IMG/VR virus record: IMGVR_UViG_2534681701_000009
Direction: 5' to 3' (one strand)
From: a virus
Taxonomy: Duplodnaviria > Heunggongvirae > Uroviricota > Caudoviricetes
DNA: 10,264 nt
The notes under the pieces were generated by a model. That model made no database searches and was not told the origin of the DNA. It worked only from the letters and a program-made list of their open reading frames with translations. The translations under genes were made by a program, and so were the position numbers. Shown here piece by piece: positions 1 through 10,264 of the stretch (positions are counted from its first letter, which is position 1; the number at the start of each line of letters is the position of its first letter).

Positions 1-1254
1 ATGCTGGAACAAATGGGCATTGCCGCGAAGCAAGCCTCGTATAAATTAGCGCAACTCTCCAGCCGCGAAAAAAATCGCGTGCTGGAAAAAATCGCCGATG
101 AACTGGAAGCACAAAGCGAAATCATCCTCAACGCTAACGCCCAGGATGTTGCTGACGCGCGAGCCAATGGCCTTAGCGAAGCGATGCTTGACCGTCTGGC
201 ACTGACGCCCGCACGGCTGAAAGGCATTGCCGACGATGTACGTCAGGTGTGCAACCTCGCCGATCCGGTGGGGCAGGTAATCGATGGCGGCGTACTGGAC
301 AGCGGCCTGCGTCTTGAGCGTCGTCGCGTACCGCTGGGGGTTATTGGCGTGATTTATGAAGCGCGCCCGAACGTGACGGTTGATGTCGCTTCGCTGTGCC
401 TGAAAACCGGTAATGCGGTGATCCTGCGCGGTGGCAAAGAAACGTGTCGCACTAACGCTGCAACGGTGGCGGTGATTCAGGACGCCCTGAAATCCTGCGG
501 CTTACCGGCGGGTGCCGTGCAGGCGATTGATAATCCTGACCGTGCGCTGGTCAGTGAAATGCTGCGTATGGATAAATACATCGACATGCTGATCCCGCGT
601 GGTGGCGCTGGTTTGCATAAACTGTGCCGTGAACAGTCGACAATCCCGGTGATCACAGGTGGTATAGGCGTATGCCATATTTACGTTGATGAAAGTGTAG
701 AGATCGCTGAAGCATTAAAAGTGATCGTCAACGCGAAAACTCAGCGTCCGAGCACATGTAATACGGTTGAAACGTTGCTGGTGAATAAAAACATCGCCGA
801 TAGCTTCCTGCCCGCATTAAGCAAACAAATGGCGGAAAGCGGCGTGACATTACACGCAGATGCAGCTGCACTGGCGCAGTTGCAGGCAGGCCCTGCGAAG
901 GTGGTTGCTGTTAAAGCCGAAGAGTATGACGATGAGTTTCTGTCATTAGATTTGAACGTCAAAATCGTCAGCGATCTTGACGATGCCATCGCCCATATTC
1001 GTGAACACGGCACACAACACTCCGATGCGATCCTGACCCGCGATATGCGCAACGCCCAGCGTTTTGTTAACGAAGTGGATTCGTCCGCTGTTTACGTTAA
1101 CGCCTCTACGCGTTTTACCGACGGCGGCCAGTTTGGTCTGGGTGCGGAAGTGGCGGTAAGCACACAAAAACTCCACGCGCGTGGCCCAATGGGGCTGGAA
1201 GCACTGACCACTTACAAGTGGATCGGCATTGGTGATTACACCATTCGTGCGTAA
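1..1254 (+). CDS. proA: gamma-glutamyl phosphate reductase (glutamate-5-semialdehyde dehydrogenase), complete, 417 aa
   Basis: Full-length ORF starting at window base 1 and ending in TAA; the translation matches the E. coli ProA sequence as I recall it; proA sits immediately upstream of thrW in E. coli. Confidence 0.95.
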
Positions 1255-1368: not shown

Positions 1369-1444
1369 GCCGATATAGCTCAGTTGGTAGAGCAGCGCAT
1401 TCGTAATGCGAAGGTCGTAGGTTCGACTCCTATTATCGGCACCA
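1369..1444 (+). tRNA. thrW: tRNA-Thr (anticodon CGU), 76 nt with encoded CCA
   Basis: GCCGATATAGCTCAGTTGGTAGAGCAGCGCATTCGTAATGCGAAGGTCGTAGGTTCGACTCCTATTATCGGCACCA: cloverleaf-compatible acceptor/T-arm pairing, GTTCGA T-loop, anticodon loop TTCGTAA giving anticodon CGT; position after proA fits thrW. Confidence 0.9.
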
Positions 1445-1609: not shown

Positions 1610-2824
1610 GTGAAACTCAATGCCCGTCAAATAGACACAGCCAAGCCAAAAGAGAAGGCTTACAAGCTGGCCGATGGTGGCGGTTTGTATCTCTTGGTAA
1701 AACCTAATGGAGGTAAATACTGGCGACTTAAATATCGTGTAGCTGGTAAAGAGAAGCTATTGGCACTAGGTGTTTATCCTGAGGTTACTCTAGCCGATGC
1801 TCGGGCAAAACGTGAAGATGCGAAAAGAGGTATCGCTGGTGGTATCGATCCGATGGAAGCGAAACGAGAGGAAAAGATTGCCCGGGAAACGCAGTTAAAC
1901 AACACCTTCAAAGATATTGCCATTGAGTGGCACAGCAGCAAATTAAAAAAATGGTCTGCTGGTTATGCTTCAGACATCCTCGAAGCCTTCAACAAAGATG
2001 TGTTCCCTTACATTGGCAAAAAAACCATCGCCGAAATCAAACCACTTGAACTTCTGAATGTGCTGCGTCGCATCGAGGGGCGCGGTGCTACAGAAAAAGC
2101 CAAAAAAGTGAGGCAGCGGTGCGGGGAAGTTTTCCGCTATGCAATAGTCACTGGTCGCGCAGAGTATAACCCTGCACCAGACCTTACTAGCGCGATGCAA
2201 GGCCATGAATCTAATCATTACCCTTTCCTTACAGCCAAAGAATTACCTGATTTTTTCAAGGCATTGTCCAGTTACTCAGGAAGCGCATTGGTTGTTATGG
2301 CGGCTCGTCTACTGATTATCACCGGCTTGCGGACTGGCGAACTACGTGGCGCATTATGGGATGAAATTGATTTCAACAAGGCTATCTGGGAGATACCCGC
2401 TTCACGTATGAAAATGCGGCGGACTCATATTGTGCCATTGTCTGAGCAGGCTCTTTCGCTTATTGGGAAGATTAGAGAAATAACAGGCAATTACCCTCTT
2501 ATGTTTCCCGGGCGCAATGATCCAAGGAAAACAATGAGCGAGGCCAGCATAAACCAAGTGTTTAAGCGCATTGGCTACGCTGGACGTGTAACTGGTCATG
2601 GGTTCCGGCACACTATGAGTACGATTTTGCATGAGCAGGGCTATAACACCGCGTGGATAGAAACGCAGCTCGCTCACGTTGATAAGAACTCAATTCGTGG
2701 CACATACAACCATGCGCAATATCTGGATGGAAGGCGGGAGATGCTTCAATGGTATGCCGACTATATGGATTCTCTCGAGCATGGCGGAAATGTGGTGCAT
2801 ATGGTGTTTGAAAAACACGCATGA
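1610..2824 (+). CDS. int: P4-family tyrosine recombinase / integrase, 404 aa, GTG start
   Basis: ORF directly downstream of the tRNA; GGAGG 9 nt upstream of GTG; N-terminus KPKEKAYKLADGGGLYLLVKPNGGKYWRLKYR is typical of P4-type integrases; C-terminal HGFRHT ... RGTYNHAQY carries the recombinase His/Arg/Tyr catalytic motifs. Confidence 0.9.
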   Translation: MKLNARQIDTAKPKEKAYKLADGGGLYLLVKPNGGKYWRLKYRVAGKEKLLALGVYPEVTLADARAKREDAKRGIAGGIDPMEAKREEKIARETQLNNTFKDIAIEWHSSKLKKWSAGYASDILEAFNKDVFPYIGKKTIAEIKPLELLNVLRRIEGRGATEKAKKVRQRCGEVFRYAIVTGRAEYNPAPDLTSAMQGHESNHYPFLTAKELPDFFKALSSYSGSALVVMAARLLIITGLRTGELRGALWDEIDFNKAIWEIPASRMKMRRTHIVPLSEQALSLIGKIREITGNYPLMFPGRNDPRKTMSEASINQVFKRIGYAGRVTGHGFRHTMSTILHEQGYNTAWIETQLAHVDKNSIRGTYNHAQYLDGRREMLQWYADYMDSLEHGGNVVHMVFEKHA

Positions 2825-2967
2825 AACAACTGGACAAGTATACAGAGGTTTACTAAAGTATAGGGGAGTAGATTGATAAAAACTCACAGAGGATTGCTAT
2901 TTAACAGTTAGCCCTGGAGAAGGGCAATCGCTCTTTTATAAACGAAGGTGTATTGAGCCTTCTACGT

Positions 2968-3030
2968 CGCTGACAAAGCGGAATGTTCTTTAACAGGCTT
3001 TGGCGCTGACAAAGCGCAATTGTTCTTTAA
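2968..3030. repeat. two direct repeats of ~26 bp (CGCTGACAAAGCG-G/CAAT-TGTTCTTTAA) in the int-alpA intergenic region
   Basis: Copies at 2968..2993 and 3004..3030; each begins with a small CGCT...AGCG inverted motif; candidate regulator binding sites. Confidence 0.4.
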
Positions 3031-3134
3031 AACTACTGGATGTCACGCCTAATAGCGTGATCCTGCCGAAATGCAGGGTAGCTCTACCCTTGTGGAGCAA
3101 ACAAACCAAAACAATCTGACTATCTTTTATAAAA

Positions 3135-3163
3135 GACCGCAATATGTTTTTCATATTGTGGTC
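3135..3163. promoter_or_regulatory. 12-bp imperfect palindrome with 5-T spacer (GACCGCAATATG TTTTT CATATTGTGGTC), candidate operator or hairpin upstream of alpA
   Basis: 11 of 12 positions are self-complementary; lies ~90 bp upstream of the alpA ATG. Confidence 0.35.
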
Positions 3164-3268
3164 TTTGGCGTATTCGACATTTGACGCAAATAAAACTCTC
3201 GCCATTCGTTGCAGGAGGGAGTTATTGCGTCATTAGTACAGGATATTAATAAATGGCTAATTACAATT

Positions 3269-3277
3269 CATTAATTC
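3269..3277. repeat. IS1 target-site duplication, left copy (CATTAATTC)
   Basis: Identical 9-mer directly flanks the other IS1 end at 4046..4054; 9 bp is the usual IS1 duplication length. Confidence 0.9.
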
Positions 3278-3292
3278 GGTAATGACTCTAAC

Positions 3293-3796
3293 TTATTGAT
3301 AGTGTTTTATGTTCAGATAATGCCCGATGACTTTGTCATGCAGCTCCACCGATTTTGAGAACGACAGCGACTTCCGTCCCAGCCGTGCCAGGTGCTGCCT
3401 CAGATTCAGGTTATGCCGCTCAATTCGCTGCGTATATCGCTTGCTGATTACGTGCAGCTTTCCCTTCAGGCGGGATTCATACAGCGGCCAGCCATCCGTC
3501 ATCCATATCACCACGTCAAAGGGTGACAGCAGGCTCATAAGACGCCCCAGCGTCGCCATAGTGCGTTCACCGAATACGTGCGCAACAACCGTCTTCCGGA
3601 GCCTGTCATACGCGTAAAACAGCCAGCGCTGGCGCGATTTAGCCCCGACATAGCCCCACTGTTCGTCCATTTCCGCGCAGACGATGACGTCACTGCCCGG
3701 CTGTATGCGCGAGGTTACCGACTGCGGCCTGAGTTTTTTAAGTGACGTAAAATCGTGTTGAGGCCAACGCCCATAATGCGGGCTGTTGCCCGGCAT
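3293..3796 (-). CDS. insB: IS1 InsB reading frame (expressed as InsAB' fusion via -1 frameshift), 167 aa as listed
   Basis: Translation ...[96 protein letters not shown]... matches IS1 InsB; overlaps insA as in IS1. Confidence 0.9.
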
Positions 3797-3990
3797 CCAA
3801 CGCCATTCATGGCCATATCAATGATTTTCTGGTGCGTACCGGGTTGAGAAGCAGTGTAAGTGAACTGCAGTTGCCATGTTTTACGGCAGTGAGAGCAGAG
3901 ATAGCGCTGATGTCCGGCAGTGCTTTTGCCGTTACGCACCACCCCGTCAGTAGCTGAACAGGAGGGACAGCTGATAGAAACAGAAGCCAC
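3715..3990 (-). CDS. insA: IS1 InsA (transposition regulator / N-terminal part of InsAB' transposase), 91 aa
   Basis: Translation [43 protein letters not shown]... is the canonical IS1 InsA with its zinc-finger motif. Confidence 0.93.
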
Positions 3991-4045
3991 TGGAGCACCT
4001 CAAAAACACCATCATACACTAAATCAGTAAGTTGGCAGCATCACC

Positions 4046-4054
4046 CATTAATTC
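4046..4054. repeat. IS1 target-site duplication, right copy (CATTAATTC)
   Basis: Identical to 3269..3277. Confidence 0.9.
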
Positions 4055-4232
4055 GTCTCTCTGAAGTTCAAAGGCGAACTGGTTATAGCAAAGCATGGAT
4101 TTATCGTCTTATTAGTCAGGGGAGGTTCCCTAAACAGGTAAAAATTGGAAGTCGGGCAATTGCTTTTGTTGAGTCTGAAATAGATGAATGGATTGAGAAG
4201 TGTATATTAGAATCTAGAGACGAGGTGGCCTG

Positions 4233-4664
4233 ATGGAAAAGAAAAACCGCCCATTACAGGCGGCTAATTCAGATATTCGTGTATCTGATGTTACGCCCCT
4301 TACAAAATCCCTTCAAGCACCAAAGCGCACACCGAAAAAGCATCGTGCCAGAGTCTATATGCTGCGTACTGGTATAGAGGGATGGACAGAAAATGACATT
4401 CTTCGCTACTGCCGTCTGTCTTCTGGTCGTAACTATGCAACAGAGTTAGAACGCCAGCTTGGAATCACTCTGGAGCGTATCGACGAAAAGAATCCTGATG
4501 GTATCGGAACACACCTTCGCTACCGTTTCTCCTGCCGTGGTGATGTTCTGAAAGTGATCACTCATATTAACCATCTTGCGAACATAAATGATCACAACGG
4601 ACTTTCTCAGCAGGAAATTGCCGACATTCTGAAACTCTACCCGGACGCGTTTAACGCCGCCTAA
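4233..4664 (+). CDS. hypothetical protein, 143 aa, basic N-terminus; function unknown
   Basis: ATG overlaps the alpA stop (TGATG); ORF with protein-like composition; no family recognised by eye. Confidence 0.65.
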   Translation: MEKKNRPLQAANSDIRVSDVTPLTKSLQAPKRTPKKHRARVYMLRTGIEGWTENDILRYCRLSSGRNYATELERQLGITLERIDEKNPDGIGTHLRYRFSCRGDVLKVITHINHLANINDHNGLSQQEIADILKLYPDAFNAA

Positions 4665-4676
4665 CGGAGACTGAAA

Positions 4677-5510
4677 ATGAACATCGAAAAAAGCAGATTA
4701 ATTTCTGAGGCCGCCCCTCATCTGAACGCCTCTCTGGGCACAATTAACGGTAATGAATTTGCCGCAATTGTCCCGGTTATTCCTGGTCATATCGGTGGGC
4801 GTGAAACCAATATTGTTAGCGCAAAAGCGTTACACAAAGCGTTGGGCGTGGGAAAAGACTTCTCTACATGGATCACTGATCGCATCTCTGAATATGACTT
4901 CACCATTGGGCACGATTACTCAGTCCATAAAACAATTTCCCCAAATTTGGGGAAAAGCCCGAATGGCGCGGCTTACAGCAAGATAAAGCACTCTGGCAGA
5001 CCCGGCAAAGACTATCTGTTAAGTGTCGGAATGGCGAAAGAACTGGCAATGATCGAACGCAATGATCAGGGTCGCGCTATCCGCCGTTATTTCATCCAGT
5101 GCGAGGAAGAATTACAGCGTAGCGTGCCTGAAATCGCCGCCCGCTATCGTCGCCAGCTAAAAGCCCGTATCAGTGCCGCAAACAACTTTAAGCCAATGTG
5201 CGATGCGCTGAATATGGCCCGTGCCGAGATGGGTAAAACGACGCAGCAACACCACTACACAAACGAGAGCAATATGATTTCTCGTATCGTTCTTGGTGGG
5301 CTAACTGCTAAGCAGTGGGCGCGGATAAATGGCTATTCTGGCGAACCTCGCGACCATATGAACGCAGAACAGCTTGAGCACCTCTCATATCTCGAAAGCA
5401 CCAATATCACGTTAATTGATATGGGCATGGAATATGAGCAGCGCAAAGGAGAACTCACCCGCCTGTCGCAACGCTGGCTCGCTAAGCGTCTGGAGGCGGT
5501 CCATGTTTAA
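4677..5510 (+). CDS. phage antirepressor-like protein (AntA/Rha-type N-terminal region), 277 aa
   Basis: GGAG 8 nt upstream of ATG; motifs KDFSTWITDRISEYDF and LSVGMAKELAMIERNDQGRAIRRYFIQCEEEL resemble AntA/Rha-family antirepressor domains from memory. Confidence 0.7.
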   Translation: MNIEKSRLISEAAPHLNASLGTINGNEFAAIVPVIPGHIGGRETNIVSAKALHKALGVGKDFSTWITDRISEYDFTIGHDYSVHKTISPNLGKSPNGAAYSKIKHSGRPGKDYLLSVGMAKELAMIERNDQGRAIRRYFIQCEEELQRSVPEIAARYRRQLKARISAANNFKPMCDALNMARAEMGKTTQQHHYTNESNMISRIVLGGLTAKQWARINGYSGEPRDHMNAEQLEHLSYLESTNITLIDMGMEYEQRKGELTRLSQRWLAKRLEAVHV

Positions 5511-5685
5511 GCCGACAGGAACACCACAACCTCAAAAACGCTACAAAGATGCCCACGGAGCACTCGTTACTGTCGAAAGCGTGTCTCACAACCGAGTGAC
5601 GTTTTATCGCGACGGGTATCAATCGCCATGCGTACAACCGCTGGCGCGTTTCATGAAGGAGTTCGCGGAGGTTAACAAATGCTAA
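5503..5685 (+). CDS. small hypothetical protein, 60 aa (MFKPTGTPQ...)
   Basis: ATG embedded in the upstream stop (ATGTTTAA) suggests translational coupling; I prefer this start to the longer 5416 start in the ORF track, which overlaps the upstream gene by 95 nt. Confidence 0.5.
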   Translation: MFKPTGTPQPQKRYKDAHGALVTVESVSHNRVTFYRDGYQSPCVQPLARFMKEFAEVNKC

Positions 5686-6746
5686 CCGTCCAGAAGAAGA
5701 CATTTTCACTGGCTGGTATGTCGCCAAAATCCAGTAATATGACGGCAAAGTCAGGCATTAATACAGCAGATACAAGCAAAGTTTATCATTTGCTGGTGGT
5801 CGGAACGGATGCCTTAACCATATCAGAAATCTCGGGCGATGATATTAGCATTGAGAAGGTCAGCGGCTGCGCCAGAAAATTTCTGGTCGTAGATGATGTC
5901 TTCCGCTCGTGTAGTGACTCCACAAAAACATTCGTCCACGCGCGTGACGTTAACGAAATGAGCGCGATGTACTGTGCATCTGGTGCTTCCAATAGCGAGT
6001 TTTCGGAGTCCATAAAAAAGAGCTTGCCGTTATGCGGCAACACGGTTTATGGTTATAAGGCACCTCATAAAACGGGTGCCGGGATTGGCGTCCTGGTAAA
6101 TCGAATGGCGACATATGACGCGCCGAGCGTCTTTTTTTATGTCGTAGGTCTGACTCACCCATTTTTTGGGCGTTGGTGTATAATCCAGCGCCTTTGTCAA
6201 TCAATGGTGGCTCAGGCAGGGGCTTCTTCGGAAGCGCCGGTATCCATTCGAGCCGGTTACGCCAACCCTGTCTGGGCTACCACCAGCGAAATTGGCGTTT
6301 CCGGTGGTAGCGTTACATGCTATCGAATGGAGGCTGCCACATGCTGGCTACTACCCCTACCCAAAAACCGCAATTTATCTGGATTATCGCCGCAGTTCGC
6401 CGCGATTGCCCGACAATTACCGCCAAAATTCATCATATTGCTGCCGAGTCTGAACGCGATGCTCGCCGTTCTCTGGTGCGCGATCACGTCTGCTTTTTTG
6501 CTGGTCGTATCCGCATGGAGGTGGCTCATGATTAAAACCTACGATGTGCATATGGATCCCCTCGAACGCACAAGCCAGATCATCACACTGACAGAAGTGA
6601 TTAACGACATTCTGGTGAGCAACTCTCCCTCACGAGACGAAAGACTGAAGGCGTTACTCGCGATATTGGATCTCGCCGTTCGTGACGTTCATTTCCTGCT
6701 GGAAGGTGGCGAAATGCCAGGAAAAACGGGGGCAACCAATGAATAA
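5679..6746 (+). CDS. uncertain: 355-codon open frame; plausibly a real coupled gene at its 5' end (5679 to ~6116) but no in-frame stop before 6746
   Basis: ATG overlaps the upstream stop (ATGCTAA) with GAGG 7 nt upstream; frame stays open through a terminator-like hairpin, a promoter-like TATAAT, the structured region and the out-of-frame Icd-like ORF. Probably not one protein. Confidence 0.25.
6117..6138 (+). terminator. candidate rho-independent terminator (GACGC-GCCGA-GCGTC followed by T7)
   Basis: 5-bp GC-rich stem, 5-nt loop, immediately followed by TTTTTTT at 6132..6138; lies at the end of the alpA-to-orf60 coupled module. Confidence 0.4.
6150..6184 (+). promoter_or_regulatory. candidate sigma70 promoter, perfect -10 TATAAT at 6179..6184 with TG two bases upstream and an A/T-rich tract before it
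   Basis: GGTGTATAAT; no canonical -35 at 17-bp spacing, so assignment rests on the -10 and context (just downstream of the terminator, upstream of the structured region and icd-like gene). Confidence 0.4.
6199..6335 (+). ncRNA. candidate C4/CI-type antisense immunity RNA with flanking target sites (approximate bounds)
   Basis: 9-bp stem GCTACCACC (6276..6284) / GGTGGTAGC (6303..6311); TCCATTCGA (6243..6251) is complementary to TCGAATGGA (6323..6331), which overlaps the GGAGG ribosome-binding site of the icd-like ORF; a related ATCAATGGTGG motif sits upstream at 6199..6210. Confidence 0.4.
6341..6535 (+). CDS. Icd-like (host cell division inhibitor-like) small protein, 64 aa
   Basis: GGAGG 7 nt upstream of ATG; [22 protein letters not shown]... 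resembles Icd-like proteins of P1/P4-type immunity regions from memory; stop overlaps the next ATG. Confidence 0.55.
   Translation: MLATTPTQKPQFIWIIAAVRRDCPTITAKIHHIAAESERDARRSLVRDHVCFFAGRIRMEVAHD
6528..6746 (+). CDS. small hypothetical protein, 72 aa
   Basis: ATG overlaps the icd-like stop; first of a chain of coupled ORFs. Confidence 0.5.
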   Translation: MIKTYDVHMDPLERTSQIITLTEVINDILVSNSPSRDERLKALLAILDLAVRDVHFLLEGGEMPGKTGATNE

Positions 6747-6933
6747 CTCAATTAATACCCCTCGCCTTACGTCCGCACTTCAATTAATCGAGCAAGCAGC
6801 GGCTGTCCCGGTTGCTGTCAGTCTTTCGGCTGAAGAAATGGACGCTGCTGATGTCGTGGATGCGATTAAAGCGTGCTCATCTTTGGTTAACGATGCCCGT
6901 GACGAGCTGGTAATTCTTGGGGGTGAAAAATGA
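6739..6933 (+). CDS. small hypothetical protein, 64 aa ([10 protein letters not shown]...)
   Basis: Start embedded in upstream stop as ATGAATAA; preferred over the 6682 start in the ORF track. Confidence 0.5.
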   Translation: MNNSINTPRLTSALQLIEQAAAVPVAVSLSAEEMDAADVVDAIKACSSLVNDARDELVILGGEK

Positions 6934-7193
6934 ATATCAACTTAATTTATCGTCATCCGTGTGAGCTGGAAATTGAATCATTGCTGAGCCGTGAAGAGCC
7001 ATATCCAGACACATTCACTCTTGCAGATCGCACGACTGAACGGCTTACCAGAGCGCGCACAGGTCTGGTTCATGTGATGAATGAGATTCTTCCATCGGTG
7101 GGAGGGGAACAGGCGACAGTAATCACTAGCTGGCTACAAAAAGTTACCTCTCTGATAGATATCAGTTTAATCGATGCGGAGAGTGCGAAATGA
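6930..7193 (+). CDS. small hypothetical protein, 87 aa
   Basis: ATGA start/stop overlap with upstream ORF. Confidence 0.55.
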   Translation: MNINLIYRHPCELEIESLLSREEPYPDTFTLADRTTERLTRARTGLVHVMNEILPSVGGEQATVITSWLQKVTSLIDISLIDAESAK

Positions 7194-7411
7194 CCAACAT
7201 CCAGCTCATTGAAGCACAATGTCGCATCGAACAGGTTCAGACTGTTTTAGGGTTCTGGCTTGAAGGGGCCAGCCCCAGCAACAGAGACAAGTTAATGATT
7301 GGCGCGGTTATGTCACTGCTCAATGGCGTACCAGAAGCTATTCAGGAAGCGGACGAATTGTTGGGCAAATATGAGTTACAGAATCATTCAGGCGAGGCGA
7401 AACATGAATAA
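7190..7411 (+). CDS. small hypothetical protein, 73 aa
   Basis: ATGA start/stop overlap with upstream ORF. Confidence 0.55.
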   Translation: MTNIQLIEAQCRIEQVQTVLGFWLEGASPSNRDKLMIGAVMSLLNGVPEAIQEADELLGKYELQNHSGEAKHE

Positions 7412-8006
7412 TTTCTTAACTTTCCATGCAGAAGCAACGCCTGACGGCGTAAACATCATGTACCGCAGCAACGATGGCATGACAGAACGCGTTGAGACCG
7501 TCTCATATATTGATGCCGTAAATCGTCTGGATGCCGGGGATTATGACGATAAACCAGATGAAGGTATGTCAATACATCTCGCTATTGCCGATGGCGGCAA
7601 CCAGGGATATTTCGATTACACATCACAGCATAACGTCATTATGTGGAGATGGCTGATCGCAACAGTATTCATGCTGGAAATGAGAGAGGAAAACGGTACT
7701 GTCAGCATCATTGATGATACTGGCAATCCTTCCGAAGTGGCTGTTTATTCCAACGGCATCGTCGCCATGCCGCTGTATCCAGTAGCAGAGCGCCTCGCTA
7801 TGGCAAACAACATTGAGGGCGCGATGATAGAACGTTTTGGCATCGAGTCTGGCACAGAACGCGCCATCATTTTCTACAGAGCCATGATGGATGTGGAACA
7901 AGGAGCACTGACTCCATTTGGTCGTGAAACGCTTGCTGAACTTCACAACAGCTTTATAGCTGAACTGAATGAAAACGGCATGCCAGCGGAACCAGTGACG
8001 CACTGA
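7404..8006 (+). CDS. hypothetical protein, 200 aa (MNNFLTFHAEATPDG...)
   Basis: Start embedded in upstream stop as ATGAATAA, the same 8-nt junction as at 6739; preferred over the 7299 start, which would overlap the upstream ORF by 113 nt. Confidence 0.65.
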   Translation: MNNFLTFHAEATPDGVNIMYRSNDGMTERVETVSYIDAVNRLDAGDYDDKPDEGMSIHLAIADGGNQGYFDYTSQHNVIMWRWLIATVFMLEMREENGTVSIIDDTGNPSEVAVYSNGIVAMPLYPVAERLAMANNIEGAMIERFGIESGTERAIIFYRAMMDVEQGALTPFGRETLAELHNSFIAELNENGMPAEPVTH

Positions 8007-8016
8007 GGATGGAGCC

Positions 8017-8358
8017 ATGATTACTAAAAATTTCCGACTGAATGCGCTGGCAAATAAGTATGCGTCGGCACTGTATAACCACATTACCTCCACCAGCGGC
8101 GGGGACTATTTCATGGTTGATGCGGACGGCGAGGCCGTCCGTGTGGAAATCGTCAATGGAGTAAAAGGCGTTCGCAGCCTGATCGATAGCTACACACTGG
8201 CAGCCATGAAAGTGTTCTACCCGCAGTGGGAAACCGTGGGGATCGAGCTTCTTGAACGTTGCGTCACTAAGGACGGATTGACTGACGTCGGGCGTGAGAT
8301 ATGGCAAAGCATGGTTAATGACATGGGCGCAACTGTAGCGGGAGGTTCTCATGCGTGA
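8017..8358 (+). CDS. hypothetical protein, 113 aa
   Basis: GAGGATGGAG ribosome-binding site directly upstream of ATG; no family recognised. Confidence 0.65.
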   Translation: MITKNFRLNALANKYASALYNHITSTSGGDYFMVDADGEAVRVEIVNGVKGVRSLIDSYTLAAMKVFYPQWETVGIELLERCVTKDGLTDVGREIWQSMVNDMGATVAGGSHA

Positions 8359-8722
8359 AAATGCAGAAATGGCGCTTAGCTCCGCAATCGGAGAGCAGGT
8401 GGCAAAGATTGCTGGTGCTGTGTGGATTCATAACCTTCATTCTACTGGTGAAGAGAAAATGGTAATTCAGACGCCAGAGGGACGCACCATTACTACATCT
8501 CTGAAGCCGTCAGATGTTTGTGATCTGATTTGCGCATTCATGTACCCAGCAATGAGGACTGTCCACGGCGATAAGTGGAAACTTGCGACAACCGCTGAAT
8601 TTGATATGTGGCTAAACAATGATGGCATGCTGACTGATTACGGAATAACCAAGTGGCAGATGCTGGTTAGCCATATCGCAAACGCTATAGACCACGTGGG
8701 GTACGGTGATGCGAAACATTGA
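8351..8722 (+). CDS. hypothetical protein, 123 aa
   Basis: ATG overlaps upstream stop (ATGCGTGA); no family recognised. Confidence 0.65.
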   Translation: MRENAEMALSSAIGEQVAKIAGAVWIHNLHSTGEEKMVIQTPEGRTITTSLKPSDVCDLICAFMYPAMRTVHGDKWKLATTAEFDMWLNNDGMLTDYGITKWQMLVSHIANAIDHVGYGDAKH

Positions 8723-9336
8723 TCTTATCCGTCAGGTTATCAGTGCGTCTGAAAACAACTGGCCTCATGTGCTGGGCTGCCTGAACATAAATGTCCCTGA
8801 CTCTCCGCGCCGTCATGCTCCCTGCCCTGCATGTGGGGGCAAAGATCGATTCCGGTTCGATGACAACGGGCGCGGTAGCTTCATCTGTAATCAGTGCGGC
8901 GCTGGTGATGGGCTGGATTTAATTAAACGCGTAAATAACTGCGACACAACAGAGGCGGCGCTTCTTGCCGCTGATGTTCTGGGTATTGATTACCGGACAA
9001 CGGAAACACCAGAAGCCACCAGCCAGAAACGGGAACAACTGGAAACCGAGCGCCAGCGACGCGAACAGGAGCGCCTGAAAAGGGCAGAGAAGGACGAACA
9101 ACAAAGACGGGATACGTTTTCCCGTCAGTTTGATGACATGCGCAGAAAGGCTGTAAACGGCAAATCTGATTATCTGGTTGCGAAAGGGGTAGGTGATTTT
9201 ACATTCCCCGTGTTGCCCGATGGATCTCTGTTGCTGGCGCTGGTGGATAAATCCGGCGCAGTAACAGCAGCACAGACTATTACCTCACATGGTGAAAAAA
9301 GACTCCTGACAGGTTCAGCAAAGCGGGGGGCATATC
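8706..9336 (+). pseudogene. P4 alpha-type DNA primase, N-terminal ~210 codons only (zinc-binding domain and start of TOPRIM), truncated by IS186
   Basis: CPACGGKDRFRFDDNGRGSFICNQCGAGDGLDL is a primase zinc-ribbon motif; P4-type primase/helicases are ~700-800 aa, whereas this frame terminates a few codons inside IS186. Confidence 0.8.
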
Positions 9337-10264
9337 CATAAGCGCTAACTTAAGGGTTGTGGTATTACGCCTGATATGATTTAACGTGCCGATGAATTAC
9401 TCTCACGATAACTGGTCAGCAATTCTGGCCCATATTGGTAAGCCCGAAGAACTGGATACTTCGGCACGTAATGCCGGGGCTCTAACCCGCCGCCGCGAAA
9501 TTCGTGATGCTGCAACTCTGCTACGTCTGGGGCTGGCTTACGGCCCCGGGGGGATGTCATTACGTGAAGTCACTGCATGGGCTCAGCTCCATGACGTTGC
9601 AACATTATCTGACGTGGCTCTCCTGAAGCGGCTGCGGAATGCCGCCGACTGGTTTGGCATACTTGCCGCACAAACACTTGCTGTACGCGCCGCAGTTACG
9701 GGTTGTACAAGCGGAAAGAGATTGCGTCTTGTCGATGGAACAGCAATCAGTGCGCCCGGGGGCGGCAGCGCTGAATGGCGACTACATATGGGATATGATC
9801 CTCATACCTGTCAGTTCACTGATTTTGAGCTAACCGACAGCAGAGACGCTGAACGGCTGGACCGATTTGCGCAAACGGCAGACGAGATACGCATTGCTGA
9901 CCGGGGATTCGGTTCGCGTCCCGAATGTATCCGCTCACTTGCTTTTGGAGAAGCTGATTATATCGTCCGGGTTCACTGGCGAGGATTGCGCTGGTTAACT
10001 GCAGAAGGAATGCGCTTTGACATGATGGGTTTTCTGCGCGGGCTGGATTGCGGTAAGAACGGTGAAACCACTGTAATGATAGGCAATTCAGGTAATAAAA
10101 AAGCCGGAGCTCCCTTTCCGGCACGTCTCATTGCCGTATCACTTCCTCCCGAAAAAGCATTAATCAGTAAAACCCGACTGCTCAGCGAGAATCGTCGAAA
10201 AGGACGAGTAGTTCAGGCGGAAACGCTGGAAGCAGCGGGCCATGTGCTATTGCTAACATCATTA
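9337..10264 (+). mobile_element. IS186 (IS4 family), left end and first 928 bp; continues beyond window
   Basis: Begins CATAAGCGCTAACTTAAGGGTTG (IS186 terminal repeat as I recall it), inserted next to a GGGGGG run; contains the IS186 transposase N-terminus. Confidence 0.85.
9392..10264 (+). CDS. insL: IS186 transposase, N-terminal 291 codons; partial, open to the window end (not in the ORF track because no stop is reached)
   Basis: Translation MNYSHDNWSAILAHIGKPEELDTSARNAGALTRRREIRDAATLLRLGLAYGPGG... matches IS186 transposase from memory; frame is open for exactly 291 codons to base 10264. Confidence 0.85.
   Translation, partial: MNYSHDNWSAILAHIGKPEELDTSARNAGALTRRREIRDAATLLRLGLAYGPGGMSLREVTAWAQLHDVATLSDVALLKRLRNAADWFGILAAQTLAVRAAVTGCTSGKRLRLVDGTAISAPGGGSAEWRLHMGYDPHTCQFTDFELTDSRDAERLDRFAQTADEIRIADRGFGSRPECIRSLAFGEADYIVRVHWRGLRWLTAEGMRFDMMGFLRGLDCGKNGETTVMIGNSGNKKAGAPFPARLIAVSLPPEKALISKTRLLSENRRKGRVVQAETLEAAGHVLLLTSL

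Follow-up and report, generated by a model that had tools for sequence, protein, structure and literature searches.

Features of the locus

We analysed a stretch of 10,264 nucleotides of DNA (the window), whose features are summarized in Table 1. In order, it carries proA, a tRNA-Thr gene, int, an alpA gene with an IS1 insertion (alpA::IS1), antA, an RNA module and a primase gene. The latter (pri-rep) is cut by a second insertion sequence, IS421, inside which the window ends; the source contig ends one base further on.

Table 1. Features of the 10,264-bp window with their positions, strand and the basis of their assignment.
Feature	Position	Strand	Basis or remark
tRNA-Thr (CGT), thrW integration site	1369-1444	+	ARAGORN, Rfam tRNA
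Proposed att core TCCTATTATC	1428-1437		Core search; sequence as for EcCIMP1 (PMC11773190)
Tyrosine integrase (int), 404 aa, intact	1610-2824	+	Pfam Arm-DNA-bind_3, Phage_int_M, Phage_integrase
int-alpA intergenic region, intact, with helper-responsive alpA promoter	2825-3252	+	
alpA 5' fragment, codons 1-8 and first base of codon 9	3253-3277	+	Translation
Target-site duplication (9 bp), left copy, CATTAATTC	3269-3277		
IS1, complete, 768 bp	3278-4045		Minus-strand transposase genes
IRR	3278-3300		Left end of IS1
insB' frame	3293-3796	-	Inside IS1
insA	3715-3990	-	Inside IS1
A6C frameshift motif (AAAAAAC)	3733-3739	-	-1 programmed type
IRL	4023-4045	-	Right end of IS1
Target-site duplication (9 bp), right copy, CATTAATTC	4046-4054		
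alpA 3' fragment, rest of codon 9 to stop	4055-4233	+	Translation, Pfam
143-aa ORF	4233-4664	+	Pfam/PHROGs
AntA-type antirepressor	4677-5510	+	Pfam/PHROGs
DUF4222 protein	5503-5685	+	Pfam/PHROGs
Internal RNA immunity-like module	6060-6535	+	Rfam, terminator scan, NCBIfam NF033153, complementarity analysis
isrK-like RNA	6060-6137	+	Rfam
Intrinsic terminator, then T-run	6117-6131	+	Within isrK-like RNA
-10 element TATAAT	6179-6184	+	C4-type RNA
C4 antisense RNA	6200-6287	+	Rfam
icd-like ORF	6341-6535	+	NCBIfam NF033153
pri-rep (TOPRIM/DUF927 primase), 5' 628 nt	8709-9336	+	Pfam Zn_Ribbon_Prim
IS421 (IS4 family), left part	9337-10264	+	

The window is an EcCIMP1-type phage-inducible chromosomal island (PICI) at thrW. 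That is, the integrase gene lies at one end and adjoins an att site, which is the site also used by EcCIMP1; alpA follows directly downstream of int in the same orientation, and all further downstream ORFs are on the plus strand. A pri-rep gene with a Zn_Ribbon_Prim N-terminus is also present, truncated here. The window ORFs that were scanned (Pfam, PHROGs) matched no structural or lysis family; the window ends inside IS421. The integrase differs from that of E. coli MB49 by a single amino acid and has no internal stops. Within the int-alpA intergenic region, a repeat search found a tandem repeat (2968-2993/3004-3030), and a 15-nt inverted repeat lies at 3132-3146/3152-3166. The region upstream of alpA is 98.5% identical to positions -449 to +25 of E. 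coli MP1, which are included in the published alpA-lux reporter fragment (-449 to +50; PMC11773190).

EcCIMP1 itself, an island of MP1 for which phage Kapi1 is the mobilising helper (Pick, Stadel and Raivio 2025, ISME J; PMC11773190), is found at this very site, flanked by proA/tRNA-Thr and yagU, and its att core is identical. It shows the same order of int, alpA, 143-aa ORF, antA, DUF4222, ash/icd region, small ORFs and TOPRIM/DUF927 primase, with a nucleotide identity of 97.1-97.8% over the shared parts of the window. In MP1 the ash region is rearranged (annotated pseudogene and icd), and both alpA and primase are intact, whereas they are split by IS1 and truncated by IS421 here. The distal half of EcCIMP1 (ejection-protein-like genes, PerC, alpA_1) corresponds to DNA outside the window. 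The int-alpA-...-pri-rep layout is common to EcCICFT073 and other Gram-negative PICIs (Fillol-Salom et al. 2018; PMC6092414), while att sites and packaging modules of EcCICFT073-type PICIs differ. EcCIMP1-type islands are phylogenetically distant and without recognisable capsid or terminase genes (PMC11773190).

The initial annotation had used P4-like elements as its point of reference. P4-like satellites do have in common with the window a tRNA-linked integrase, an alpha-like zinc-ribbon primase and a C4/CI-type antisense RNA, and PF05930 is also the Pfam family of P4 Vis and of the AlpA of CP4-57. The host element is nevertheless a Gram-negative PICI of the EcCIMP1 type; a P4-like satellite is not supported, given that none of the window ORFs scanned with Pfam and PHROGs shows a Psu, Delta or Sid match.

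The IS1 copy and its target duplication

The inserted element agrees with the IS1 family in length (~768 bp), in its 23-bp imperfect terminal inverted repeats starting with GGT(G/A)ATG, in the insA/insB' arrangement with an A6C motif for -1 frameshifting, in its zinc ribbon and DDE domains, and in the direct target duplication of 9 bp (occasionally 8 bp in this family). The frames for InsA (91 aa) and InsB' (167-aa frame) are both open and match NCBIfam NF033558 (transpos_IS1) with 91.3 and 145.6 bits, respectively; NF050000 is matched with 41 bits. Pfam DDE_Tnp_IS1 and Zn_ribbon_InsA are annotated on an identical contig (PF03400, PF03811, PF12759).

The ends of the element had been described as exact, which applies to the boundaries but not to every base. 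We compared both ends with the canonical IS1 sequences: the right end matches IRL (GGTGATGCTGCCAACTTACTGAT) in 23/23 bases, and the left end matches IRR in 22/23, the one mismatch being a T instead of C at element position 12. Besides this change, there are a few internal substitutions. The element closely resembles the IS1A type and has 99.6% identity with a copy in E. coli AF3, the transposase of which is labelled 'IS1A family'. Functionally there is nothing unusual about it, i.e., it is an ordinary element.

The 9-bp target duplication is exact, as first described. CATTAATTC has only two occurrences in the window, each directly outside an IS1 end, and it is single-copy in the intact allele; the chance of matching a specified 9-mer is ~4e-6. 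With C at either end and an AT-rich core, the duplication also resembles those of the IS1 family.

The split alpA gene

Joining 3253-3277 to 4055-4233, i.e., removing IS1 together with one copy of the repeat, results in an ORF of 204 nt that encodes 67 aa. An AlpA-type frame of 68 aa with the insertion at codon 8 had been proposed before. Restoration of the frame is confirmed by full nucleotide identity to the uninterrupted allele of MB49 (100%, zero substitutions), while the length has to be corrected to 67 aa and the insertion point lies after nt 25, within codon 9. The end coordinate 4233 is right: the stop codon TGA occupies 4231-4233 and overlaps the next ATG (4233-4235).

Compared with MP1, the restored ORF differs by one synonymous base, and it encodes the very protein that alpA of EcCIMP1 does (WP_000035054.1). 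The uninterrupted gene is annotated under this accession in MB49, LF4-1 and MP1, such that the reconstructed frame does have homologues, the absence of which would have counted against it. The uninterrupted locus is present in 266 of 5426 complete E. coli genomes. Regarding domains, the restored protein matches Pfam PF05930 (Phage_AlpA) with 71 bits (cutoff 21) over residues 7-55 and HTH_17 with 38.4 bits; its closest solved relative is 8c3t, an 'AlpA family phage regulatory protein' (E = 1.3e-5). The central claim, that an IS1 with its target duplication splits a gene of the AlpA family, stands and is strengthened by the Pfam match and by the identity to the alpA product of EcCIMP1.

In its present state the gene is split. 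The 5' part reads MANYNSLIR*, i.e., a peptide of nine residues that ends at a TAA inside IS1, and the 3' part, which carries nearly all of the AlpA HTH domain, is without a conventional start. No in-frame ATG, GTG or TTG was found for it between the upstream stop at 3955 and 4225. The annotation of the source assembly lists a 60-aa ORF at 4051..4233; its start is an ATT without Shine-Dalgarno sequence. Re-initiation of the alpA remainder was rejected, as this ATT is the sole candidate. With a 9-aa product and a 3' part of this kind, the earlier view that alpA is probably inactivated proves correct, and both alpA and pri-rep should be marked as IS-disrupted pseudogenes instead of listing a 60-aa 'AlpA'.

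Downstream genes and polarity

The three genes at 4233-5685 (143-aa ORF, antA, DUF4222) are tightly coupled and intact compared to MB49. They are followed, between antA and the replication genes, by the isrK-like RNA, the C4-type antisense RNA and the icd-like ORF. Thus, the 'coupled operon' of the initial annotation is not a unit with one promoter, since an internal terminator and a C4 RNA with its own -10 element intervene. For the same reason, polarity can be predicted with confidence only for 4233-5685, and these genes are the most exposed to it. As a separate observation, the isrK-like promoter and the C4 -10 element (6179-6184) could keep the genes beyond ~6190 transcribed without the alpA promoter.

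At the far end, pri-rep has an intact length of 2757 nt in MB49 and is intact in MP1 as well. IS421 cuts it at 9336/9337 (divergence point), which leaves a product of 210 aa. Given IS421 in pri-rep and IS1 in alpA, the island therefore has two disabling lesions.

Transcripts from the alpA promoter would run into IS1 in antisense direction, a stretch of 768 nt of RNA that is not translated. Counted in windows of 78 nt (starts at 3313-3613), the plus strand has a C content of 31-35% versus 21-24% for G, such that this RNA would present a C-rich, G-poor stretch (~3313-3690), where it would also meet convergent insA transcription. The polarity of IS1 is known from classical IS1 genetics. Taken together with the base composition, Rho would probably end transcripts from the alpA promoter here, which would silence at least the 143-aa ORF, antA and DUF4222.

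Consequences for the mobility of the island

Within Gram-negative PICIs, AlpA acts as the helper-induced, self-activating master regulator (PMC6092414). Deletion of alpA abolishes transfer of EcCICFT073, where AlpA activates its own promoter (PMC6092414). For EcCIMP1, the deletion abolishes excision, circularisation and Kapi1-mediated transduction and also lowers the induction of alpA-lux (PMC11773190).

We consider it very likely that IS1 disables alpA and that the island is thereby locked against mobilisation by helper phages, i.e., is a decaying remnant. The lesion would have arisen by simple IS1 transposition after nt 25 of alpA, leaving the 9-bp duplication and no adjacent deletion. In this EcCIMP1-type PICI, transcription from the promoter that responds to helper phage reaches alpA first. 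Upon helper induction, the island would be unable to excise, circularise or be transduced, because AlpA is a required activator and positive autoregulator according to the published genetics of an identical protein. By analogy to these deletion mutants, the island is almost certainly unable to respond to helper phage. IS421 in pri-rep would independently remove replication. The other ORFs are intact and alpA is without substitution, which argues that both IS insertions are recent. A precise excision across the 9-bp repeats could in principle revert the alpA lesion.

Some activity might come in trans from a further gene of the AlpA family (alpA_1 in EcCIMP1) or from the AlpA of another element of the genome; in MP1, alpA_1 did not substitute for alpA (PMC11773190).

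A further parallel, by name and terminator layout, is a lead only. AlpA of Pseudomonas aeruginosa is a processive antiterminator that loads onto RNA polymerase at the promoter, bypasses an intrinsic terminator and is positive on downstream genes (PMC7969949, PMC9371919). The two proteins have the family name in common, and an intrinsic terminator (6117-6131) is located between alpA and the replication genes here too.

Recurrent IS1 insertion and alternative readings

Among different E. coli lineages, we found 6 independent IS1 junctions, all in the operon's first ~550 nt, a count of small numbers without phylogenetic correction. Three are located in alpA (after nt 25, 52 and 92) and three in orf143 (nt 282, ~416 and 551). 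The five IS1 copies that were aligned (all but that of MB53) differ in sequence and are 93-100% identical to the copy in the window. Two control segments of the island, probed identically for IS1 junctions, gave 0 records each.

Such a cluster could mean that the insertion was selected, i.e., that the host locks its satellite, keeps the cargo and avoids costly induction, or that the 9-bp repeats serve as a reversible switch. In line with this, when AlpA is overexpressed in EcCICFT073, the island replicates without control and viability is lost (PMC6092414), and reversion would restore a wild-type gene, as alpA has no substitutions. But target preference could explain the cluster on its own. 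IS1 prefers AT-rich DNA, and the GC content of the alpA 5' region is 24-35% versus 47-49% in the control segments. The numbers are small and kinship is uncorrected, large deletions accompany 4/5 of the other IS1 events, which suggests plain decay, and the primase is destroyed as well, so that reversion would not restore a working island. We thus regard it as unlikely, if worth keeping in mind, that the recurrent targeting of alpA and the next gene reflects host selection beyond AT-richness.

Slightly less probable still, and doubtful in our view, is the reading that the split gene encodes not an activator but a recombination directionality factor of the excisionase type (P4 Vis, TorI, Kapi1 Xis). 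In this case, excision alone would be lost and operon expression would be unaffected save for polarity. PHROGs families labelled 'excisionase and transcriptional regulator' are matched, as are TorI (1z4h; E = 0.076) and, weakly, the excisionase family TIGR01764 (19.6 bits, under its cutoff of 28.8), and the loss of excision in the EcCIMP1 alpA deletion would fit as well. Yet the same deletion lowers the alpA-promoter reporter, which points to positive autoregulation, and it was deletion of alpA_1, not of alpA, that changed the titres of Kapi1 delta-xis (PMC11773190). Furthermore, AlpA of EcCICFT073 activates transcription and does not regulate int; control of induction is the reported role of PICI AlpA (PMC6092414), whereas P4 Vis is an excisionase. 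As to mobility, a directionality factor and an activator lead to the same prediction.

The initial annotation had also considered that outward transcription from IS1 drives the downstream genes. IS1 would then be a mobile promoter, with constitutive transcription of the operon from the IRL end that is uncoupled from AlpA and helper phage. IS1 insertions can yield hybrid promoters, and such promoters have reportedly been created this way; an outward-facing -35-like TTGGCA is found at 4032-4037, 8 bp inside the IRL end. However, the -10 candidates at a spacing of 16-18 bp (CGTCTC, GTCTCT, TCTCTC) match TATAAT in just 0-2 of 6 positions, and a consensus scan of the plus strand, starting inside IS1 and reaching to 4800, turned up nothing sigma-70-like. 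At the IRL end, the one promoter present is that of insA, which is known and directed away from the operon. A hybrid or outward promoter at the IRL end was therefore rejected on sequence, there being neither a -10 element nor a plus-strand promoter. Moreover, translational coupling into the 143-aa ORF is lost too, given that the alpA remainder lacks a start codon, and IS1 is said to contain a transcription terminator. We consider a mobile promoter very improbable, and silencing of the downstream genes remains our preferred reading.

Finally, misplacement of a repeated IS1 by the assembler has a negligible probability: IS1 is multicopy (median ~10 places per E. coli genome) and draft contigs usually break at IS copies, but the exact 9-bp duplication and the perfect frame restoration fit a real insertion, one contig (AQET01000018.1 of GCA_000356165.2, 100% identical to the window) spans the entire IS1, and at least 6 other assemblies independently hold the IRL/duplication/alpA junction. 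That is, the right IS1/duplication/alpA junction is found in 6 further draft contigs with 99.97-100% identity, and the junctions of both IS1 and IS421 recur in several draft assemblies. With the same junctions in at least 7 draft assemblies, the insertion is no assembly artefact. The exact insertion is absent from the 5426 complete E. coli genomes, where the best full-coverage matches carry IS1 at other positions; a search for the exact left junction in one representative genome per species (a single genome for E. coli/Shigella) gave 0 matches.

Implications

The insertion represents routine decay, through an IS, of an element that is known already. For this lineage, the island is best recorded as non-mobilisable, its cargo no longer being spread by helper phage. 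It adds one case to the decay of mobile elements by IS insertion and does not by itself raise a new question. What reaches beyond this case is solely that IS1 hits apparently cluster at the master-regulator end of this island family. If the clustering reflects selection, it would bear on the host domestication of phage satellites, and the allele of the window, with its intact duplication and unmutated gene, would be the freshest and a potentially reversible example of such domestication.

Insertion and restored gene

The window carries a complete IS1 of 768 bp (3278-4045; direct reading and script check). The ends were compared with the canonical IS1 end sequences. The left inverted repeat (IRL; 4023-4045, minus strand) agrees in 23/23 bases while the right one (IRR; 3278-3300) shows one substitution; the ends described as exact in the initial annotation are so in their boundaries but not in every base. 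The copy has the A6C frameshift motif, and both insA and the insB' frame match NCBIfam transpos_IS1 (91.3 and 145.6 bits, respectively). The claimed exact 9-bp duplication is found: CATTAATTC occurs twice in the whole window (3269-3277, 4046-4054), identical and each time flush with one IS1 end.

Next, we fused 3253-3277 to 4055-4233. This restores an ORF of 204 nt (67 aa; MANYNSLIRLSEVQRRTGYSKAWIYRLISQGRFPKQVKIGSRAIAFVESEIDEWIEKCILESRDEVA) that matches the uninterrupted E. coli MB49 gene in every base, while that of strain MP1 has the same translation and differs in one synonymous base. The proposed coordinates and AlpA-type frame are thus correct, but the protein has 67 instead of 68 residues and IS1 sits in codon 9 (after nt 25) rather than codon 8. 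The assigned family is reproduced by Pfam Phage_AlpA (residues 7-55; 71 bits, cutoff 21), and among solved structures the closest is 8c3t (E = 1.3e-5), named 'AlpA family phage regulatory protein'. The annotations of MB49, LF4-1 and MP1 list the uninterrupted gene as WP_000035054.1.

alpA::IS1 is not an assembly artefact. At 100% identity, the window matches contig AQET01000018.1 of GCA_000356165.2, which crosses the entire IS1, and six further draft contigs begin within IS1 and continue via IRL, duplication, alpA remainder and operon into IS421 (99.97-100% identity). Among 5426 complete E. coli genomes, the exact insertion was found in none and the uninterrupted locus in 266.

Island type and second lesion

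From proA through the primase gene, the window has the layout of EcCIMP1, the phage-inducible chromosomal island (PICI) of E. coli MP1. Nucleotide identity is 97.1-97.8% to MP1 and 99.5-99.7% to MB49. According to the EcCIMP1 description (PMC11773190), WP_000035054.1 is the alpA of this island, which resides in tRNA-Thr between proA and yagU (att core TCCTATTATC). EcCIMP1 without alpA no longer excises or circularises, and helper phage Kapi1 no longer transduces it. The helper phage, rather than DNA damage as such, induces an alpA-lux reporter (-449 to +50), whose reduced induction without AlpA indicates positive autoregulation. In EcCICFT073, alpA deletion abolishes transfer, AlpA switches on its own promoter, and AlpA overexpression causes uncontrolled island replication (PMC6092414). 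Given the role of AlpA in both islands and the shared layout, the element is a Gram-negative PICI of EcCIMP1 type. A P4-like identity is not supported, as the window ORFs scanned yielded no P4 hallmark genes.

Features of the insertion locus and island (window coordinates)
Feature	Position	Strand	Remarks
proA	1-1254		
tRNA-Thr	1369-1444		
att core	1428-1437		
int	1610-2824		
alpA::IS1	3253-4233		
insB' frame	3293-3796	minus	open
insA	3715-3990	minus	open frame
orf143	4233-4664		143-aa ORF
AntA antirepressor	4677-5510		
DUF4222	5503-5685		
'ash' region	5679-6746		355-aa ORF annotated 'ash family protein'
isrK-like RNA	6060-6137	as 'ash' ORF	Rfam, 67.1 bits vs 50
intrinsic terminator	6117-6131		ends isrK-like RNA; then T-run
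TATAAT	6179-6184		perfect; between isrK-like and C4 RNAs
C4 antisense RNA	6200-6287	as 'ash' ORF	Rfam, 79.5 bits vs 45
Icd-like ORF	6341-6535		NF033153, 71.7 bits
small ORFs	6739-8722		
TOPRIM/DUF927 primase gene	from 8709		

The match to the intact islands ends at 9336, followed by IS421 (IS4 family; 9337-10264), which cuts the primase from 918 aa to a 210-aa product. Because the window shows no damage in any other island ORF, both insertions look recent. The same truncated 210-aa product is present in a related island near yicC with a different integrase and chromosomal context (L007:10001-10657). This recurrence suggests site-specific IS421 insertion beside the G-run GCGGGGGGCATATC or inter-island recombination. 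For IS421 copies at other places in E. coli, the match in some cases also takes in ~23-25 bp to the left of the IS end.

The intact islands of MB49 (L014:20788-25624) and MP1 (L015:12632-18827) carry P22-like DNA-ejection genes 3' of the primase gene, outside the window (DUF2824, 'phage DNA ejection protein', and a P22-gp16-like or lytic transglycosylase protein), an unusual cargo for a satellite with a P22-like helper phage.

Effect on alpA and downstream genes

The native alpA start now yields MANYNSLIR, followed by a TAA made by the first IS1 bases. The 3' fragment keeps almost the entire HTH domain and has no in-frame ATG, GTG or TTG between the upstream stop at 3955 and 4225, which bears out the presumed inactivation. 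The 60-aa 'AlpA' of the source assembly (4051-4233) was discarded, as it would need an ATT start and has no Shine-Dalgarno sequence. From the published genetics on the identical protein it follows that the island would be incapable of induction, excision and transfer.

The alpA promoter lies in an undamaged region (2825-3252) that shares 98.5% identity with the reporter region of MP1, so helper-induced transcripts should still begin there. They would then cross antisense IS1 untranslated and meet the opposing insA promoter in IRL (4038-4011, minus strand). The plus strand across IS1 has 31-35% C vs. 21-24% G (78-nt windows starting 3313-3613). This C-rich, G-poor untranslated stretch and the opposing promoter would favour Rho-dependent termination, in accordance with the polarity classically seen for IS1 in either orientation; a terminator within IS1 has reportedly been described.

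Alternatively, outward transcription from IS1 had been suggested to drive the operon, and a -35-like TTGGCA (4032-4037) indeed points outward. However, its -10 would have to be CGTCTC, GTCTCT or TCTCTC, all poor options, and no plus-strand sigma-70-like site is found from within IS1 to 4800. Furthermore, IS1's own promoter fires away from the operon because IRL adjoins it. We thus consider an outward promoter very improbable.

In the int-alpA intergenic region, a simple scan finds no canonical sigma-70 promoter near alpA. A tandem ~26-nt repeat (2968-2993/3004-3030, spaced 36 nt; CGCTGACAAAGCG[G/C]AAT..TGTTCTTTAA) and a 15-nt inverted repeat (3132-3146/3152-3166; AAAGACCGCAATATG / CATATTGTGGTCTTT) may be operators for AlpA or for the helper-phage inducer of the alpA promoter. 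A 71-aa minus-strand ORF (2990-3205; no PGAP annotation in MB49 or MP1) occupies the expected place of EcCIMP1_002, the mis-annotated 'UvrB-like' gene of Pick et al. (PMC11773190).

RNA module within the 'ash' ORF

The coupled operon is less simple than proposed, since the isrK-like terminator, C4 RNA, TATAAT and Icd-like ORF intervene beyond 5685; we therefore consider IS1 polarity secure for 4233-5685 only. The C4 loop AUCCAUUCGA (6243-6251) is complementary to 6101-6108 within the isrK-like RNA and to 6323-6331, which overlaps the icd Shine-Dalgarno sequence. This arrangement resembles the P1 c4-icd and P4 CI (seqA/seqB/seqC) layouts. The replication genes may be served by a separate promoter and regulated through RNA. 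The antisense immunity module is housed in a PICI, and the available part of the EcCIMP1 description (PMC11773190) makes no mention of it. Since P. aeruginosa AlpA is an antiterminator (PMC7969949, PMC9371919), read-through of the isrK terminator might, by analogy, require PICI AlpA.

The Pfam Phage_ASH match (residues 124-232 of the 355-aa ORF; 6048-6374) coincides with the isrK-like and C4 RNA genes. The 'Ash' protein family may at least partly represent conserved RNA genes read as protein, in which the long ORF, too, may have arisen through annotation alone.

Recurrent IS1 insertions

Six independent IS1 junctions from different E. coli lineages, including that of the window, fall in the first ~550 nt counted from the alpA start (others: loci L003, L004, L005, L016, L018). 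Counted from the alpA ATG, alpA is hit in AF3 (after nt 52) and 700481 (after nt 92), and orf143 in HNSQ2209 (nt 282), all three without duplication, in MB53 (nt about 416; IS1 in opposite orientation) and in four UTME genomes (nt 551; 8-bp duplication). The right-hand genes are deleted in all but the UTME strains (4/5 events outside the window). The four aligned IS1 copies (MB53 left out) are 93-99.6% identical to the window's. Control probes of the same design at two other island segments gave 0 records each. Because the alpA 5' region has 24-35% GC vs. 47-49% in the two control segments, target preference alone may explain the cluster, with selection for silencing a minority possibility. 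alpA/orf143 may be an IS1 hotspot due to AT-richness and/or selection.

Overall, the IS1 insertion in alpA is confirmed, and its initial interpretation is supported and sharpened. IS, regulator and satellite family are all known. The immobilisation of the island in the window is a prediction that has experimental grounding in published genetics.
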